Below are positions 3,510 through 31,672 of a stretch of DNA of 32,775 nt, one piece after another (the first letter of the stretch is position 1; each line of letters opens with the position of its first letter). The notes under the pieces were generated by a model, which was not told the origin of the DNA, did no database searches, and saw only the letters and a program-made list of their open reading frames with translations. The position numbers and the translations under genes were made by a program. The DNA comes from a virus (taxonomy: Duplodnaviria > Heunggongvirae > Uroviricota > Caudoviricetes), in the IMG/VR virus record IMGVR_UViG_2913152634_000001, one strand, 5' to 3'.

Positions 3510-5814
3510 AGCCTCCGGGCGTTTTGTCCCTCCGTCAGCATTTGCCGCAGGCACCGGTAAGACGTTTACCGGTGCTTATGCATGGAACGCGCCACGCGAG
3601 GCTGTCGGGCGCGAAAGACCCCTTACACGTGACGAGATGCGTCAGGTGCAAGGTGTTTTATCCACGATTAACCGCCTGCCTTACTTTTTGCGCTCGCTGT
3701 TTACTTCACGCTATGACTACATCCGGCGCAATAAAAGCCCGGTGCACGGGTTTTATTTCCTCACATCCACTTTTCAGCGTCGTTTATGGCCGCGCATTGA
3801 GCGTGTGAATCAGCGCCATGAAATGAACACCGACGCGTCGTTGCTGTTTCTGGCAGAGCGTGACCACTATGCGCGCCTGCCTGGAATGAATGACAAGGAG
3901 CTGAAAAAGTTTGCCGCCCGTATCTCATCGCAGCTTTTCATAATGTATGAGGAACTCTGCGATGCCTGGGTGGATGCGCATGGCGAGAAAGAATCACTGT
4001 TTACGGATGAGGCGCAGGCTCACCTGTATGGTCATGTTGCTGGCGCTGCACGTGCTTTCAATATTTCCCCGCTCTACTGGAAAAAATACCGTAAAGGGCA
4101 GATGACCACGAGGCAGGCATATTCTTCCATTGCCCGTCTGTTTAACGATGAGTGGTGGACTCATCAGCTTAAAGGCCAGCGTATGCGCTGGCATGAGGCG
4201 TTACTGATTGCTGTCGGGGAGGTGAATAAAGACCGTTCTCCTTATGCCAGCAAACATGCCATTCGTGATGTACGTGCACGCCGCCAGGCAAATCTGGAAT
4301 TTCTTAAATCGTGTGACCTTGAAAACAGGGAAACCGGCGAGCGCATCGACCTTATCAGTAAGGTGATGGGCAGTATTTCTAATCCTGAAATTCGCCGGAT
4401 GGAGCTGATGAACACCATTGCTGGCATTGAGCGTTACGCCGCCGCAGAGGGTGATGTGGGGATGTTTATCACGCTGACCGCGCCGTCAAAGTATCACCCG
4501 ACACGTCAGGTCGGAAAAGGCGAAAGTAAAACCGTCCAGCTAAATCACGGCTGGAACGATGAGGCATTTAATCCAAAGGATGCGCAGCGTTATCTCTGCC
4601 ATATCTGGAGCCTGATGCGCACGGCATTCAAGGATAATGATTTACAGGTCTACGGTTTGCGTGTCGTCGAGCCACACCACGACGGAACGCCGCACTGGCA
4701 TATGATGCTTTTTTGTAATCCACGCCAGCGTAACCAGATTATTGAAATCATGCGTCGCTACGCGCTCAAAGAGGATGGCGACGAAAGAGGAGCTGCGCGA
4801 AACCGTTTTCAGGCAAAACACCTTAACCGGGGCGGTGCTGCGGGGTATATCGCGAAATACATCTCAAAAAACATCGATGGCTATGCACTGGATGGTCAGC
4901 TCGATAACGATACCGGCAGGCCGCTGAAAGACACTGCCGCGGCTGTTACCGCATGGGCGTCAACGTGGCGCATTCCGCAATTTAAAACGGTTGGCCTGCC
5001 GACAATGGGGGCTTACCGTGAACTACGCAAATTGCCGCGCGGCGTCAGCATTGCTGATGAGTTTGACGAGCGCGTCGAGGCTGCACGCGCCGCCGCAGAC
5101 AGTGGTGATTTTGCGTTGTATATCAGCGCGCAGGGTGGGGCAAATGTCCCGCGCGATCGTCAGACTGTCAGGGTCGCCCGTAGCCCGTCGGATGACGTTA
5201 ACGAGTACGAGGAAGAAGTCGAGAGAGTGATCGGCATTTACGCGCCGCATCTCGGCGCGCGTCATATTCATATCACCAGAACGACGGACTGGCGCATTGT
5301 GCCGAAAGTTCCGGTCGTTGAGCCTTTGACTTTAAAAAGCGGCATCGCCGCGCCTCGGAGTCCTGTCAATAACTGTGGAAAGCTCACCGGTGGTGATACT
5401 TCGTTATCGGCTCCCACACCGACTGAGCACGCCGCAGCAGTGCTTAATCTGGTTGATGAGGGTGTCATCGAATGGAGTGACCCGGAGGTCGTGAAGGCGC
5501 TCAGGGGCGCATTAAAACACAACCTGAGAACACCAAATCGTCAGCAAAGAAACGGAAGCCCGTTAAAACCATATGAAATGGCACCATCGGCCAGACTGAC
5601 CAGGTCGGAACGAATGCAAATTACCCGTATCCGTGTTGACCTTGCTCAAAAGGGTATCAGGCCGCAGCGATGGGAGCTCGAAGTGTTGGCACGAGGCGCT
5701 ACTGTTAGTTATGAGGGACAAAATTTTGCATTCACGGATAGCCATGACTGGAGTGGTTTTGCTGAACACTTGTGTAAGTTCACAGAGATATTGCAATTGC
5801 CTCCGGATAAGTAA
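3499..5814 (+). CDS. A: replication initiation protein A (rolling-circle nicking endonuclease)
   Basis: Large early ORF; start placed at the ATG at 3499 (MAVKASGRFVPPSAFAAGTGK, as I recall P2 gpA begins), giving 771 aa. The track ORF extends upstream to 3457. Confidence 0.9.
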   Translation: MAVKASGRFVPPSAFAAGTGKTFTGAYAWNAPREAVGRERPLTRDEMRQVQGVLSTINRLPYFLRSLFTSRYDYIRRNKSPVHGFYFLTSTFQRRLWPRIERVNQRHEMNTDASLLFLAERDHYARLPGMNDKELKKFAARISSQLFIMYEELCDAWVDAHGEKESLFTDEAQAHLYGHVAGAARAFNISPLYWKKYRKGQMTTRQAYSSIARLFNDEWWTHQLKGQRMRWHEALLIAVGEVNKDRSPYASKHAIRDVRARRQANLEFLKSCDLENRETGERIDLISKVMGSISNPEIRRMELMNTIAGIERYAAAEGDVGMFITLTAPSKYHPTRQVGKGESKTVQLNHGWNDEAFNPKDAQRYLCHIWSLMRTAFKDNDLQVYGLRVVEPHHDGTPHWHMMLFCNPRQRNQIIEIMRRYALKEDGDERGAARNRFQAKHLNRGGAAGYIAKYISKNIDGYALDGQLDNDTGRPLKDTAAAVTAWASTWRIPQFKTVGLPTMGAYRELRKLPRGVSIADEFDERVEAARAAADSGDFALYISAQGGANVPRDRQTVRVARSPSDDVNEYEEEVERVIGIYAPHLGARHIHITRTTDWRIVPKVPVVEPLTLKSGIAAPRSPVNNCGKLTGGDTSLSAPTPTEHAAAVLNLVDEGVIEWSDPEVVKALRGALKHNLRTPNRQQRNGSPLKPYEMAPSARLTRSERMQITRIRVDLAQKGIRPQRWELEVLARGATVSYEGQNFAFTDSHDWSGFAEHLCKFTEILQLPPDK

Positions 5815-5828
5815 GGGGAGATTGCACT

Positions 5829-6875
5829 ATGCAAATGCAGCATCTGATGGTTGGCTATCCTAAGTACTACCAAACGGCCGATTATGCGTTGAGGCTTTCA
5901 GTGATGGCTGATATAGCAACAATGAGAATGAAGGCTCTGCACTTCTGGGATAAACACGGTATTTCTGCAGCTTCTGAAGCCTTTGGCGTGTCCTGCCGCA
6001 CGCTTTACTGGTGGCGTCAGTTACTGAACAAGGAAGGACCTGAGGGGCTAATCCCGCACAGTAAGGCACCTCTGGTGCGACGAAAAAAACACTGGCATCC
6101 CGATGTGCTGAAAGAGATTCGACGCCTCAGGACAGAGCTGCCGAACCTCGGTAAAGAGCAGATTTTTGTTCGCCTGAAGCCCTGGTGCGAACAGCGCTAT
6201 CTGGCCTGTCCGAGTGTTTCCACCATCGGCAGAATGATCGCTGCCGCACATGATAAAATGCGGATGATACCTGTGCGTCTGGGATCGCGGGGGAAGGCAC
6301 TGCTTGTCAAAAAGCGGTCTGCCAAACCCCGCAGGCCAAAGCACTACCGCCCGGTAAAGACAGGTGAGCTCATTGGGATGGACGCCATTGAGCTCAGAAT
6401 GGGCGAACTGCGTCGCTATGTCATCACCATGATCGACGAATGCAGCAATTACGCGCTGGCACTGGCTGTGCCGTCACTCAACAGTGATATCGTCAATCAC
6501 TTCTTCAGCCGCGCAGCCCGGTTGTTCCCGGTCGGTATCAGCCAGATAATCACAGATAACGGAAAAGAGTTCCTGGGAAACTTCGACAAAACGCTGCAGG
6601 AAGCCGCTATCAAACACCTCTGGACCTATCCCTACACGCCAAAAATGAACGCTATCTGTGAACGTTTTAACCGGACGTTAAGAGAGCAGTTTATTGAATT
6701 TAATGAGATTTTACTCTTTGAAGATCTGGCGCTATTTAACCAGAAGCTGGCGGAATATCTGGTGCTGTATAACAGCAAAAGACCCCACAAGGCGCTCGCA
6801 CTAATGACGCCCGTGGAATATATTTTAAAAGAGAATAAAAATTGCAATATGTGGTGGACCCATACAACACTTTGA
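5829..6875 (+). CDS. DDE integrase-core (rve) transposase-like protein with N-terminal helix-turn-helix, IS481-like architecture
   Basis: 348-aa single ORF: N-terminal helix-turn-helix-like segment (GVSCRTLYWWRQ) and a DDE triad (GMDAIE ... ITDNGKEF ... NAICERFNRTLREQF). Strong Shine-Dalgarno AAGGGGAG at 5815-5822, immediately after the A stop. Not a gene of canonical P2. Confidence 0.75.
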   Translation: MQMQHLMVGYPKYYQTADYALRLSVMADIATMRMKALHFWDKHGISAASEAFGVSCRTLYWWRQLLNKEGPEGLIPHSKAPLVRRKKHWHPDVLKEIRRLRTELPNLGKEQIFVRLKPWCEQRYLACPSVSTIGRMIAAAHDKMRMIPVRLGSRGKALLVKKRSAKPRRPKHYRPVKTGELIGMDAIELRMGELRRYVITMIDECSNYALALAVPSLNSDIVNHFFSRAARLFPVGISQIITDNGKEFLGNFDKTLQEAAIKHLWTYPYTPKMNAICERFNRTLREQFIEFNEILLFEDLALFNQKLAEYLVLYNSKRPHKALALMTPVEYILKENKNCNMWWTHTTL

Positions 6876-7118: not shown

Positions 7119-8867
7119 CTAAGCGGTAGTGTCTTCTATATTCTTTTTCTCTTCATACATTTTATTAAAATGTGAAATATCTCCCATAAGTCTAAATATC
7201 TCTTTAAATTGTGTGATGTATATGTCGGGTGTTATTTCACCCATATCTGTTATGTTTATCGAATCTGAGTGTGAACCTCTATTTATATATCTATAGAAAG
7301 CCTTGAAATTACTATTGCTTTCATTTTGTGCAAGCCTGTTCAATTCATCTTGTAACTCGTTAGTTTTATGAACAAATGCAAAGTAATATTCTAAGATGTT
7401 TCTCATTGTATTAGGGATAACTACATTGTGAACTTTTCCATCTCTGGCATCCTTGAGTATTTGCCATAAAGATTGATATTCATTTTGCAAACTATCTCTG
7501 CTGATGTTAGAAAAAGAACTATGTAGGTTTTTTGTTATTCTAAAAAGCTGATAGGTGCTATTGAATTTCCTTTCTGAAATTGGAGCTAACTTTATTAGCT
7601 CATGAAAAAAATATAGATTATGAGTGAGGATTATCACTTTATTAGCAGAAGTGAAAATGTCATAGTGAATCATCGATGCTATATCATAGATATAGTTCTG
7701 AGAGAGACTTGAAATAGGATCGTCAATGACGATTAAACTGTCTCGGTTGTCGAATTCATCTGTGTTTGTTTGTCCCTTACAATATTCAATAAAATAGAGA
7801 AATGTAATGAGAGTTTTTTCACCTTCGCTAAGAGATCTATATACATTTTTACTTGGTGTATTATCTGAGCGAACTATAACGAAACTATTTTTTATGGTTG
7901 GATGTTTATCAATGTAGAAACAGGTAATGCCAAGGTTTTTTAATTTTGAGTTTATCGAGGAGATTGTTGTGTCGATATTGGATGTTTTATTTCTTAATTC
8001 CTTTATTTCATCATCAGTGTGTTTGATTTCTTTGTTAATAGAATCAATGCTTTCTTCGAGACTCTTGATAATGATGTCGTTTTCGGCTTGAATTTTCTCT
8101 AAAACCTCAAAGTCTGTATTGCGGTAGTTTCTCAATGCTCCCCAAAACTGATTTTTTATTTTATCTTGAGTAAGGTTAAATTGTTTTACCTTTTCATTAA
8201 GGTCATTAATTCTAGAGTTATATTGTTTTATGTCTTTTAGAAGAGATTCCTCAATATCTTTATCTTTATCAAGAGTTACGCTGAGTGACGGGTTTTGTAT
8301 CTTGTTATTAATTAACTCAATGTTACTTTTTAGCATTTTCTCAAGGGAAGAAATGTGAGCAAGACTAGTTTTTCTTTCTTCAATTGAGATTGCTGTACAG
8401 TCATTTAACTGTGTTTTTAGTAATTGAAGTTGTTCTTGAGTAGTTAATTCATAAATATATTTTAATTTTTCAATTGATGTTATTTTCTGAGCGTAGCTCT
8501 CATCAAAAATTTGCTCGAGCGCCTCTGTGAATTTATCATCAATGGTTTCTTTTTGACAAAAAGGGCAAATGTCGCCAACTAAATAATTTTCTTTACCTTT
8601 TTTAACCCAATCGAGATTCTGAAGCTTTTTGATTGTTTCTGATAGATAGCTATTGCTAGAATCAATGACAGGAGTCTTTAATAAATTTTCATCATCAAAA
8701 GAAATAGGGTAAGGATTATATGGAGATATTGTTTGTATGGTGGTGTTTTTATGATTCAATAACTCTCTGTAGTCAGTTAATAATTGATTTAAATCTATAT
8801 CAGGTAATCTAATAGAAGACTTTACCTTTGTGAAAAGGTTTCTTTTATTCTTAAGGTACCCTGCCAT
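7119..8867 (-). CDS. C-terminal fragment of a frameshift-split RloC/PrrC-like ABC ATPase with putative nuclease domain
   Basis: 582-aa ORF in a strongly AT-rich island. Contains CPFC (CxxC) in a Lys/Glu-rich coiled-coil-like region, ABC signature-like SLSEGEK, Walker B SLIVIDDP, H-loop IILTHN, then a C-terminal domain with RNILE (Arg-x3-Glu) and downstream His. No Walker A in this fragment. The reading frame stays open upstream of the ATG to a stop at 8988-8990. Confidence 0.7.
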   Translation of the reverse strand: MAGYLKNKRNLFTKVKSSIRLPDIDLNQLLTDYRELLNHKNTTIQTISPYNPYPISFDDENLLKTPVIDSSNSYLSETIKKLQNLDWVKKGKENYLVGDICPFCQKETIDDKFTEALEQIFDESYAQKITSIEKLKYIYELTTQEQLQLLKTQLNDCTAISIEERKTSLAHISSLEKMLKSNIELINNKIQNPSLSVTLDKDKDIEESLLKDIKQYNSRINDLNEKVKQFNLTQDKIKNQFWGALRNYRNTDFEVLEKIQAENDIIIKSLEESIDSINKEIKHTDDEIKELRNKTSNIDTTISSINSKLKNLGITCFYIDKHPTIKNSFVIVRSDNTPSKNVYRSLSEGEKTLITFLYFIEYCKGQTNTDEFDNRDSLIVIDDPISSLSQNYIYDIASMIHYDIFTSANKVIILTHNLYFFHELIKLAPISERKFNSTYQLFRITKNLHSSFSNISRDSLQNEYQSLWQILKDARDGKVHNVVIPNTMRNILEYYFAFVHKTNELQDELNRLAQNESNSNFKAFYRYINRGSHSDSINITDMGEITPDIYITQFKEIFRLMGDISHFNKMYEEKKNIEDTTA

Positions 8868-8955
8868 TAATGAGTTGACATCAGAGTTTCTTATGTATTC
8901 GGTATTTAACCATATTGATTCAGTACAACTTGTTTCTGCATCATGATTGCGGTCT

Positions 8956-9327
8956 TTAATTTTTTTGATAATTTGTTTTTGTTGCCTCTAGTTTTATTTT
9001 TAATGTTTTAACTATTTCTCTTTTCTTACTTATCTCTTTTTCGATCTCGGTATTTTCTTTGCTTAATGTAAAAATCCCTTTTTGAACATCTTTATCAAAG
9101 AAGTTGTCTTCAATGAACTTTGTATTATAAACCAATGGACGATAGTTATTAATGTTTGTGCAGCGGCAGTCCCTATAGTCATCGTCTGCTGGATTATAGA
9201 AAAAATTTGATATGGTAGATTTCCCAGCTCCGTTTTGCCCGTAAAGGATATTTATTCTTTTTTCGAGGGATATTTTCGTATATTTATTTTTGTCGTAGCT
9301 TGTTACATTTTTTAGACTAAGTTCCAT
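8956..9327 (-). CDS. N-terminal fragment (Walker A P-loop) of the same split ABC ATPase gene
   Basis: 123-aa ORF with Walker A YGQNGAGKST at residues 29-38; it ends in a homopolymer tract (7 T on the plus strand, 8960-8966) where the downstream 582-aa frame is already open. The two ORFs are in different frames, consistent with one gene split by a 1-nt indel. Confidence 0.7.
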   Translation of the reverse strand: MELSLKNVTSYDKNKYTKISLEKRINILYGQNGAGKSTISNFFYNPADDDYRDCRCTNINNYRPLVYNTKFIEDNFFDKDVQKGIFTLSKENTEIEKEISKKREIVKTLKIKLEATKTNYQKN

Positions 9328-9569
9328 TTTTATTTTTCTCTATTGTTTGTGTGTGTATATATGAAAACTGGTCAAAAATTGCTCTGGAAAAGACATGGCA
9401 ATTACAAAAGATCTACCTTAGATGAGTAACATTTTCAAGCCACAGCTAAGCTTTCAGTTGCATGATTTTGCATTTGATTTTGTGGTCTAAAACCTAAGAT
9501 GAACACTTTGTTGGGTAAGGTGTGTGTATACGAATGCAACTGCATTAAAACCGCCCCGTGAAGCGGGCG

Positions 9570-19004: not shown

Positions 19005-19639
19005 ATGAACACTCTCGCAAATATCCAGGAACTCGCGCGCGCACTGCGCAACATGATTCGCACCGGCCTTGTCGTCGAAACCAACCTTAAAGCCGGTCGC
19101 TGCCGTGTGCAGACCGGCGGCATGTGCACCGACTGGCTTCAGTGGCTGACCTGTCGTGCCGGGCGTTCGCGCACATGGTGGGCACCTTCCGTGGGGAACA
19201 GGTGCTGATTCTGGCCGTGGGCGGTGAACTCGACACGGCGTTCGTTCTGCCGGGGATTTATTCCGGCGATAACCCCGCACCGTCTGCGTCGGCGGATGCC
19301 CTGCATATCCGTTTCCCTGACGGGGCGGTGATTGAGTATGAACCTGAAACCAGTGCGCTCACGGTAAGCGGAATTAAAACGGCCAGCGTGACGGCTTCTG
19401 ATTCTGTTACTGCCACGGTGCCGGTGGTCATGGTGAAAGCGTCAACCCGCATCACCCTGGACACACCGGAGGTGGTCTGCACCAACAGGCTGATTACCGG
19501 CACGCTGGAAGTACAGAAGGGCGGGACGATGCGCGGCAACATTGAACACACCGGCGGTGAACTCTCATCAAACGGTAAGGTACTGCATACCCATAAACAC
19601 CCCGGCGACAGCGGCGGCACAACCGGGGGACCTCTATGA
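19005..19639 (+). pseudogene. V: baseplate spike protein V, interrupted by a 1-nt frameshift
   Basis: ORF 19005..19208 (MNTLANIQELARALRNMIRTG...TWWAPSVG) and ORF 19124..19639 (...EQVLILAVGGELDTAFVLPGIYSG...) are two frames of one gene. The span is 635 nt, one short of the 636 nt needed for 211 aa plus stop (P2 gpV length as recalled). The frames switch at the GGGG run at 19193-19196. Confidence 0.8.
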
Positions 19640-21429: not shown

Positions 21430-23358
21430 ATGAGCACAAAATTCAAAACCGTTATCACCACTGCCGGTGCAGCAAAGCTGGCAGCGGCAACCGCACCGGG
21501 AGGGCGGAAGGTCAACATTACCACGATGGCCGTCGGGGATGGCGGTGGTAAATTGCCTGTCCCGGATGCCGGACAGACCGGGCTTATCCATGAAGTCTGG
21601 CGACATGCGCTGAACAAAATCAGCCAGGACAAACGAAACAGTAATTATATTATCGCAGAGCTGGTTATTCCGCCGGAGGTGGGCGGTTTCTGGATGCGTG
21701 AGCTTGGCCTGTACGATGATGCGGGAACGTTAATTGCCGTGGCGAACATGGCCGAAAGCTATAAGCCAGCCCTTGCCGAAGGCTCAGGACGTTCGCAGAC
21801 CTGTCGCATGGTCATCATCGTCAGCAGTGTGGCCTCAGTGGAGCTGACCATTGACACCACAACGGTGATGGCGACGCAGGATTACGTTGATGACAAAATT
21901 GCAGAGCACGAACAGTCACGACGTCACCCTGACGCCTCGCTGACCGCAAAAGGTTTTACTCAGTTAAGCAGTGCGACCAACAGTACGTCTGAAACACTGG
22001 CTGCAACGCCGAAAGCGGTTAAGGCCGCATATGACCTGGCTAACGGGAAATATACCGCACAGGACGCTACCACAGCGCGAAAAGGTCTTGTCCAGCTCAG
22101 TAGTGCCACCAACAGCACGTCTGAAACGCTCGCCGCAACACCAAAAGCGGTAAAAGCAGCATATGACCTGGCTAACGGGAAATATACCGCACAGGACGCT
22201 ACCACAGCGCGAAAAGGTCTTGTCCAGCTCAGTAGTGCCACCAACAGCACGTCTGAAACGCTCGCCGCAACACCAAAAGCGGTAAAAGCAGCATATGACC
22301 TGGCTAACGGGAAATATACCGCACAGGACGCCACCACAGCGCGAAAAGGCCTTGTCCAGCTCAGTAGCGCCACCAACAGTGATTCTGAAACGCTGGCCGC
22401 AACACCAAAAGCAGTGAAGTCTGCCTATGACAATGCTGAAAAACGTCTTCAGAAAGATCAGAACGGTGCGGATATTCCGGGAAAGGATACCTTCACGAAA
22501 AATATCGGTGCCTGTCGTGCTTATAGTGGCGCTTTGAGCACTGAAGCCGGAAACTGGACAACCGCGCAGTTTATTGAATGGCTGGATTCCCGTGGTGCAT
22601 TTAATCATCCGTACTGGATGTGCAAATGTTCATGGTCATACGGCAATAATAAAATTATTACCGATACTGGCTGTGGAACTATTCATCTTGCAGGTTGCGT
22701 TATTGAGGTTATGGGTAATAAAGGTGCCATGACCATCCGTGTAACAACACCAAGCACTTCCACCGGAGGCGGCACCACTAACGCTCAATTCACTTATATT
22801 AATCATGGTGATGCTTATGCCCCCGGCTGGCGACGAGACTACAACACGAAAAACCAGCAGCCTGCATTTGCTTTAGGGCAAACAGGAAGCAGGGTTGCAA
22901 ATGATAAAGCTGTTGGCTGGAACTGGAATAGCGGTGTTTATGATGCAGATATCAGCGGTGCATCGACATTAATCCTCCACTTCAATATGAATGCGGGGAG
23001 TTGCCCTGCCGTACAGTTCCGTGTGAATTATAAGAACGGCGGTATTTTTTATCGTTCAGCACGTGATGGTTATGGATTTGAGGCTGACTGGTCAGAGTTT
23101 TACACCACAACCCGCAAACCCTCTGCGGGAGATGTTGGTGCATATACCAAAGCTGAATCGGATTCTCGCTATGTACGAGATATTCGCCTGGGCACACGTG
23201 TTGTTCAGACTATGCAAAAAGGTGTGATGTATGAAAAATCAGGCCATGTAATTACAGGGCTTGGTATTGTCGGTGAAGTCGATGGTGATGACCCCGCAGT
23301 ATTCAGACCAATACAAAAATACATCAATGGCACATGGTATAACGTCGCACAGGTGTAA
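21430..23358 (+). CDS. H: tail fibre protein H with internal tandem fibre repeats
   Basis: 642-aa ORF after I; contains 3.6 tandem copies of a 44-aa unit (QLSSATNSTSETLAATPKAVKAAYDLANGKYTAQDATTARKGLV), a phage tail-fibre repeat; divergent, more AT-rich C-terminal domain. Confidence 0.85.
   Translation: MSTKFKTVITTAGAAKLAAATAPGGRKVNITTMAVGDGGGKLPVPDAGQTGLIHEVWRHALNKISQDKRNSNYIIAELVIPPEVGGFWMRELGLYDDAGTLIAVANMAESYKPALAEGSGRSQTCRMVIIVSSVASVELTIDTTTVMATQDYVDDKIAEHEQSRRHPDASLTAKGFTQLSSATNSTSETLAATPKAVKAAYDLANGKYTAQDATTARKGLVQLSSATNSTSETLAATPKAVKAAYDLANGKYTAQDATTARKGLVQLSSATNSTSETLAATPKAVKAAYDLANGKYTAQDATTARKGLVQLSSATNSDSETLAATPKAVKSAYDNAEKRLQKDQNGADIPGKDTFTKNIGACRAYSGALSTEAGNWTTAQFIEWLDSRGAFNHPYWMCKCSWSYGNNKIITDTGCGTIHLAGCVIEVMGNKGAMTIRVTTPSTSTGGGTTNAQFTYINHGDAYAPGWRRDYNTKNQQPAFALGQTGSRVANDKAVGWNWNSGVYDADISGASTLILHFNMNAGSCPAVQFRVNYKNGGIFYRSARDGYGFEADWSEFYTTTRKPSAGDVGAYTKAESDSRYVRDIRLGTRVVQTMQKGVMYEKSGHVITGLGIVGEVDGDDPAVFRPIQKYINGTWYNVAQV
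21961..22440 (+). repeat. 132-bp tandem repeat (about 3.6 copies) inside H
   Basis: Unit starts at 21961, 22093, 22225 and 22357; copies 2 and 3 differ at only about 2 positions; copy 1 differs mainly at synonymous sites; copy 4 diverges after about 80 bp. Confidence 0.9.
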
Positions 23359-31647: not shown

Positions 31648-31672
31648 AGCCCCTCAGTTGAGGGCTTTATTT
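31648..31672 (+). terminator. candidate intrinsic terminator after ogr
   Basis: Hairpin CCCTCA-GT-TGAGGG followed by CTTTATTT, 11 nt after the ogr stop. Confidence 0.45.

Follow-up and report, generated by a model that had tools for sequence, protein, structure and literature searches.

How should a phage-borne gene be read when its opening codons and the rest of its coding sequence lie in two different frames that meet at a short run of identical bases? This question is raised by an ATPase gene in a P2-like prophage, which was analyzed as a single 32,775-nucleotide stretch of DNA (IMG/VR record IMGVR_UViG_2913152634_000001; here called the window) and is integrated between cpxP and fieF. An earlier note on this DNA offered three accounts of the division: a defense gene that has been genuinely inactivated, an error in the sequencing of a homopolymer, or low-level production of the full-length protein by transcriptional slippage or +1 ribosomal frameshifting. 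The last account was the one that the note favored. As described below, the comparison of related prophages supports inactivation and speaks against both sequencing error and programmed recoding.

The frameshifted gene as a whole spans positions 7119..9327 on the minus strand, and would encode an RloC-like AAA_13 ATPase/nuclease of 735 amino acids when intact. The frameshift site is a homopolymer at 8960..8966, where a T7 run on the plus strand is an A7 run in the mRNA of this minus-strand gene; the intact allele is one base shorter. Reading from the start of the gene yields an open reading frame (ORF) of 123 amino acids (8956..9327, minus strand) that contains the Walker A motif GQNGAGKS (9217-9240, minus strand) and the first ~30 residues of a long coiled-coil helix. 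The premature TAA stop codon that results from the frameshift is read from the sequence at 8956..8958 on the minus strand. The A7 run falls in codons 121-123, and the truncated product consists of native residues to position 121 followed by two out-of-frame residues. The downstream +1 frame (7119..8987, minus strand) is open from 8987, is preceded by a TAG at 8988-8990, and has its first canonical start at ATG 8867, from which 582 amino acids could be encoded (8867..7119, minus strand). Within this frame, also on the minus strand, are the sequences CPFC (8556-8567), LSEGE (7818-7832), and DDP (7716-7724), as well as the motif R-x3-E-x39-SH (7269-7403). The two frames overlap at the T7 run, where the mRNA reads CAA AAA AAU UAA.

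The positions that the earlier note had assigned to the stop codon, to the T7 run, and to the opening of the +1 frame are all accurate. Its assignment of the remainder of the ATPase and the C-terminal domain to the +1 frame is likewise borne out, since LSEGE, DDP, and the C-terminal domain were all located there. Removal of one T produces a continuous 735-residue protein of ~85 kDa, and thus the description of a prophage defense ATPase with a full-length product of about this mass was sound. The repaired protein matches the Pfam family AAA_13 over the whole model (E 2e-110). Because a one-T deletion is enough to give a full AAA_13 protein that is identical to one already on record, the two ORFs do not represent a chance juxtaposition.

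[quoted passage not shown] This places it in the gpA-gpQ defense hotspot, which in P2 is occupied by old and tin (PMC9122126). The gene is flanked by gpA, together with an insertion sequence (IS), and by the portal gene, and its GC content is 30.5% versus ~53% in the flanks. With the old and tin cargo of P2 (PMC9122126, PMC13586616) it shares the position between replication and portal genes near cos, the low GC content, and the variation between prophages. It differs from such cargo in that it appears to be one of the uncommon defense-gene pseudogenes. In a 2026 survey of P2-like prophages, only ~2% of the pseudogenes detected resembled defense genes (PMC13586616). The hotspot in strain Z1322HEC0001 holds two stacked defense systems, where retron Ec48 (a reverse transcriptase and a membrane effector; L007 5316-7204) lies beside an ATPase gene that is 93% identical to that of the window.

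The IS adjoining gpA belongs to the IS481 family. It is 1096 bp long (5771-6866), encodes a 348-aa transposase (NCBIfam transpos_IS481, E 1.5e-65), and is bordered by 5-bp target-site duplications, ACACT, at 5766-5770 and 6867-6871. The element lies 16 nt before the gpA stop codon, such that the last five residues of gpA (FDLFE) are exchanged for 14 IS-encoded residues. An identical IS is present in Z1323HEC0355, where it is inverted and located on the other side of the ATPase gene (window equivalent 9438-9443, duplication GCCAC). The element is absent from PMV-1, N56, and the KIMC21-1 scaffold. Elsewhere in the window, the tail-fiber gene (21430-23358) carries imperfect internal repeats of ~132 nt at 21945-22431, which were seen as offset alignments of the window with its relative.

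What would the intact gene encode? The repaired protein scores 370.9 bits against AAA_13 (PF13166), for which the cut-off is 36, and aligns with model positions 4-712 of 713. Each of the two fragments also matches this family separately. PADLOC files the protein under the candidate system PDC-S06 (E 1.5e-249), with weak matches to LmuB, AriA, and PtuA. No PADLOC model named RloC or PrrC matched at E <= 0.01, and the library may hold none. No specific NCBIfam model was found for the ATPase protein, and sequence searches of the PDB returned weak P-loop and coiled-coil matches only.

Further clues come from an alignment of 16 homologs, which extends down to 25% identity. The Walker A motif (G30-K36), LSEGE (499-503), D535-D-P537, and T568-H569 are invariant in this alignment, and the repaired protein therefore has the complete ABC-ATPase motif set of Walker A, signature, Walker B/D-loop, and histidine switch. 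A putative zinc hook of the CxxC type, C254-P-F-C257, is also invariant and corresponds to the coiled-coil/CxxC feature of RloC. Near the C terminus is R642-x3-E646-x39-S685-H686, in which the arginine, glutamate, and histidine are invariant and the serine is nearly so. The catalytic triad of RloC and PrrC follows the rule Arg-X3-Glu-X36-52-His, often with a serine before the histidine (PMC2610378), and R642, E646, and H686 with S685 conform to this rule. One distant homolog had been named a "wobble nucleotide-excising tRNase" by its source.

In a structure model of a homolog that is 69% identical to the repaired protein (mean pLDDT 82), an N-terminal P-loop lobe is accompanied by long helices flanking the CxxC, by an ATPase lobe on the C-terminal side, and by a C-terminal domain that is entirely helical. 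Residues 90-141 of this model form a single helix. Its best PDB matches are the heads of Rad50 and SMC proteins, followed by the retron ATPase PtuA, AriA, and the Lamassu complex (LmuACB). Judged by these motifs and by the homolog model, the intact gene is RloC-like, with a predicted Rad50/SMC-type ABC ATPase, a helical insert bearing a CxxC hook, and a domain with the putative PrrC/RloC triad. By analogy with these nucleases, the intact protein would respond to infection or DNA damage by cutting tRNA anticodon loops, thereby aborting phage growth. The gene probably represents an anticodon nuclease that has gone unstudied in the P2 hotspot setting.

RloC is a wobble-nucleotide-excising anticodon nuclease with a Rad50-like zinc-hook ATPase, and the gene described here, as known from its sequence and fold, resembles it in the ABC motifs, in the CPFC (254-257) within a helical insert, in R-x3-E-x39-S-H, and in the Rad50/SMC fold (PMC2610378, PMC3458546). 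It differs from RloC in being filed by PADLOC as PDC-S06, in being phage cargo of the P2 hotspot, and in being frameshifted. E. coli PrrC has in common with it the AAA_13 family and the triad pattern, and both count as effectors of the abortive-infection type, toxic once released from control. However, PrrC has no coiled-coil/hook insert and is kept silent by the type I restriction-modification locus in which it resides (PMC2610378), whereas the window gene has a long helical insert and no adjoining restriction-modification gene. The window gene is thus not of the PrrC type.

Among 5,426 complete E. coli genomes, megablast found 16 full-length matches to the gene, each of which spans 2240 nt for a query of 2241 nt. 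Nine close relatives were fetched, in which the gene is annotated as one 2208-nt coding sequence for an "AAA family ATPase." Aligned with these nine, the extra T of the window is the sole indel over 2241 nt. When this base is set aside, the gene sequences of PMV-1, N56, and Z1323HEC0355 show no differences from that of the window. The earlier note had proposed that the homopolymer length be compared across related prophages, and this comparison gave a consistent picture. A 96-nt probe reads T6 in all 11 of the close complete RefSeq E. coli genomes, and four more matches from IMG/VR and metagenome contigs also have T6. In five 93%-identical relatives, the site reads ATTTTC and there is no homopolymer.

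Among protein records, the repaired protein in its E. coli form is identical to one recorded on 158 contigs, as against 20 contigs for the 123-aa fragment. Only length 6 (the majority) and length 7 are represented in the collection, which has none of the products that runs of 4, 5, 8, 9, or 10 would give. Thus, T7 makes up a few percent and is the minority allele, and T6 is the common form, which is apparently also the ancestral state. The run site falls in a variable part of the long helix in the alignment of 16 homologs. Nearly all of the 99 homologs found are single proteins of ~720-760 aa, and shorter entries are few and for the most part fragmentary. When the species-representative genomes of GTDB were scanned with a variable-run pattern, there was no match; these representatives presumably do not carry the prophage.

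A single extra base in a homopolymer is an obvious candidate for a sequencing or assembly artefact, in which case the true run would be T6 and the gene would be intact in the source genome. There were grounds for this suspicion. Relative to five relatives, the window has three single-base homopolymer indels: the T7 run, G4 rather than G5 at 19189-19192, and G3 rather than G4 at 31659-31661. The latter two are absent from all relatives compared. The window is separated from its nearest relative, Z1323HEC0355, by two substitutions, one of which is found in the window alone, and the excess of homopolymer indels over substitutions suggests some miscalling in the assembly.

Both of these other indels may indeed be sequencing errors. 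The one at 19189-19192 frameshifts the gpV baseplate gene (expected at 19005-19639), which has G5 in all relatives, and a sequence look-up found no record of the resulting 67-aa gpV fragment. The gpV G4 run could be either a private mutation or a homopolymer error of the assembly. The indel at 31659-31661 lies in a terminator-like hairpin after ogr, whose 3' arm reads AGCCCCTCAGTTGAGGGGCTTTATTT in relatives; among the six sequences compared, the window alone has G3. Single-base indels are found in other members of this group as well, each near-identical prophage having its own. For instance, gpD of Z1323HEC0355 (L010 26676-27838; window ~30201) has a one-base deletion and is labeled "frameshifted" in RefSeq, and the gpD gene of the window is intact.

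For the T7 run itself, the presence of the 123-aa fragment in independent assemblies removes the suspicion of error. The exact fragment occurs in 39 index blocks and in at least 10 other assemblies from NCBI, Logan, and ENA, and the DNA has T7 wherever it was read. Five of these assemblies, SRR22877746 (Logan), GCA_012881955.2 and GCA_902505105.1 (both NCBI), and YOKO23-1 and KIMC21-1 (both ENA metagenome scaffolds), have the haplotype of the window, to which they are 100% identical over 8 to 19.3 kb, and all carry T7. Several T7 assemblies that are 100% identical to the window also share its IS insertion. KIMC21-1 carries T7 and lacks the IS, which implies that the frameshift is older than the IS insertion. 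None of the other T7 assemblies has the gpV indel, and those of the same haplotype that reach gpV have G5. Because the gpV indel is private and T7 is shared, the T7 run must be considered a real, inherited marker of this lineage. It is therefore barely credible that the source genome has T6, and the earlier note's option of a homopolymer sequencing error can be rejected here.

The 123-aa fragment is also encoded by a second T7 haplotype, which has 10 nucleotide differences from the window within the gene. The chromosomal flank of this haplotype, cpxP-cpxR-cpxA, matches no E. coli genome at more than 88% identity, and its proteins are named Salmonella enterica by their sources, including serovar Mbandaka. 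When repaired, its protein is identical to an intact protein recorded on 983 contigs. Upon repair, each T7 haplotype encodes an abundant intact protein. Two independent insertions of an A are the simplest account, and the T7 insertion most likely arose twice, in E. coli and in a second species. A single T7 event followed by recombination is less simple than two slips, but a small conversion patch is conceivable given a 419-nt stretch without differences. One member of the second haplotype, CP117850.2 (L019), combines T7 with a 2-nt deletion at the window equivalent of 8539-8540, which points either to a decaying gene that has been hit twice or to a noisy assembly. The portal gene call of CP117850.2 is also shorter by one residue.

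A third haplotype (Logan SRR30896223, L032 2435-4641) has kept T6 and has lost G485, which is an independent inactivation. This deletion converts AAAAGAAA into an A7 run, and the protein is truncated at 167 aa. Thus, the gene has been lost independently at least three times. It holds 11 A/T runs of six or more bases, and the coincidence of striking the same run twice is ~1 in 10. That the same run was struck on two haplotypes could hint at more than chance. Of the accounts offered in the earlier note, genuine inactivation is the one upheld by these observations: T7 is a heritable minority allele that marks lineages, and other lineages disrupt the gene in other ways.

Could the A7 run nevertheless have been kept because it permits trace synthesis of the full-length nuclease, such that a toxic effector is held nearly silent and yet remains available? 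The downstream frame can be entered only if one A is lost from the mRNA or two are added to it, or if the ribosome shifts by +1. As read from the sequence, a +1 slip at CAA AAA AAU would restore the wild-type residues Y-Q-K-I-K-D. Such a slip could plausibly occur, as background error only, when tRNA-Lys moves from one AAA onto the AAA that overlaps it, and unprogrammed read-through may occur at well under 1%. Background frameshift suppression is documented in E. coli (PMC10861913), the downstream frame is undamaged in the window, and T7 persists in several samples and on two haplotypes. However, most copies have T6, the 93%-identical relatives have no run at all, and other lineages break the gene differently, as with the loss of G485 and the 2-nt deletion in CP117850.2. 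No Shine-Dalgarno-like stimulator was found within 3-14 nt of the run, the nearest GAGG being ~20 nt upstream, and the 126 nt extending downstream from the run fold no better than shuffled sequences (z = 0.19). A -1 slip on A_AAA_AAU would enter the third frame, which stops after ~20 codons. In reporters of slippage by E. coli RNA polymerase, no rescue was detectable until a run reached 7 T or 8 A, and the A7 run is below this threshold; no deletion slippage occurred on poly(A), and insertion at A7 amounted to 0.39% by sequencing (PMC6260861). Selection against slippage-prone runs becomes evident at ~9 nt in many bacteria (PMC1088944). Programmed transcriptional slippage involves a conserved A/T run of ~9 (sometimes 8) bases, and the run here has 7 and is not conserved.

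The site may also be compared with prfB, which encodes RF2 and which resembles the present gene in that a full-length product would need a +1 shift near a stop codon. In prfB, the shift site is conserved, a stop codon occupies the A site, and a Shine-Dalgarno element lies 3 nt upstream. Here, the stop is one codon beyond the slippery AAA, the shift site is not conserved, and neither a Shine-Dalgarno element nor any other stimulatory element was found. Functional leakiness is therefore unlikely, and the option that the earlier note had favored finds no support. The gain of one A at the same tract in prophages of two species might instead reflect a contingency switch, in which A6 and A7 toggle the defense gene at high frequency. 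Six bases make a short tract by the standards of contingency loci. No lengths other than 6 and 7 are recorded, T7 is not scattered as a polymorphism but restricted to two clonal groups of haplotypes, at a few percent, and the near-identical prophages of the E. coli group are related in a way that fits one T6-to-T7 event, all of which make such a switch very unlikely. A combined proposal would make A6 a preferred off-switch, with which lysogens of two species repeatedly shut down a costly anticodon nuclease through one and the same +1A slip, and would have A7 provide a reversible, near-silent reserve of toxin through trace full-length enzyme made by +1 slippage of tRNA-Lys; this is distinctly improbable. 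Finally, an active head might be reassembled from two polypeptides, namely the 123-aa P-loop fragment and a C-terminal fragment with its own translation start. The break lies within the coiled-coil arm just past the N-terminal lobe, separately expressed Rad50 half-heads can reassemble, and PDB entries 1f2t and 1ii8 contain separate Rad50 N-terminal head fragments. However, ATG 8867 is located 89 nt past the stop and has no purine-rich Shine-Dalgarno sequence, ~30 helix residues would be lost, and none of the 99 homologs has a two-gene organization. This makes a functional split gene highly implausible.

We therefore favor the view, with a probability of roughly 85%, that the T7 form is a young, heritable loss-of-function allele and that the gene is an ordinary pseudogene of an RloC-like defense gene. 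Replication slippage would have added one A to the A6 run in codons 121-123. Translation would then stop after 123 residues, giving a product limited to the P-loop lobe and the first part of the coiled coil, and the signature, Walker B, histidine switch, CxxC hook, and nuclease-type domain would be left untranslated in the +1 frame. A product comprising the P-loop lobe and 30 helix residues is expected to be nonfunctional. The C-terminal part is probably essentially untranslated because the first start in the +1 frame has no recognizable ribosome-binding site. Any full-length protein would arise from background slippage by polymerase or ribosome rather than from an evolved signal. The downstream frame has acquired no further damage in the window and is identical to that of the intact allele. 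It is possible that selection preserves this frame, but such identity is also expected of a very recent mutation.

This is not a new phenomenon, in that homopolymer-slippage pseudogenes are already known (PMC1088944, PMC4256274), and, as in those cases, a gene that is intact in all other respects is split by a one-base length change in an A/T run. Some of the known cases are partly rescued by transcriptional slippage, and such rescue is conceivable in principle here. Pseudogenes that are rescued by slippage differ from the present one: their runs are generally 8-9 bases or longer and are conserved when utilized, whereas the run here is 7 bases long, is not conserved, and defines a minority allele.

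These findings have immediate consequences for annotation. The two ORFs should be merged as one frameshifted RloC-like ATPase pseudogene, and should not be recorded as two proteins or as a recoding site. The locus thereby provides a documented example of a defense-gene pseudogene in the P2 hotspot, a class that was found to be uncommon by survey (PMC13586616). If the T7 allele were active, it would exemplify in nature a toxin whose expression is throttled by a frameshift, although no finding here points in this direction. For the lysogen, the defense conferred by the RloC-like gene would be lost or almost lost, and the lineage that carries the allele has probably been deprived of this protection. 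The repeated loss of the gene fits the idea that such effectors are costly.
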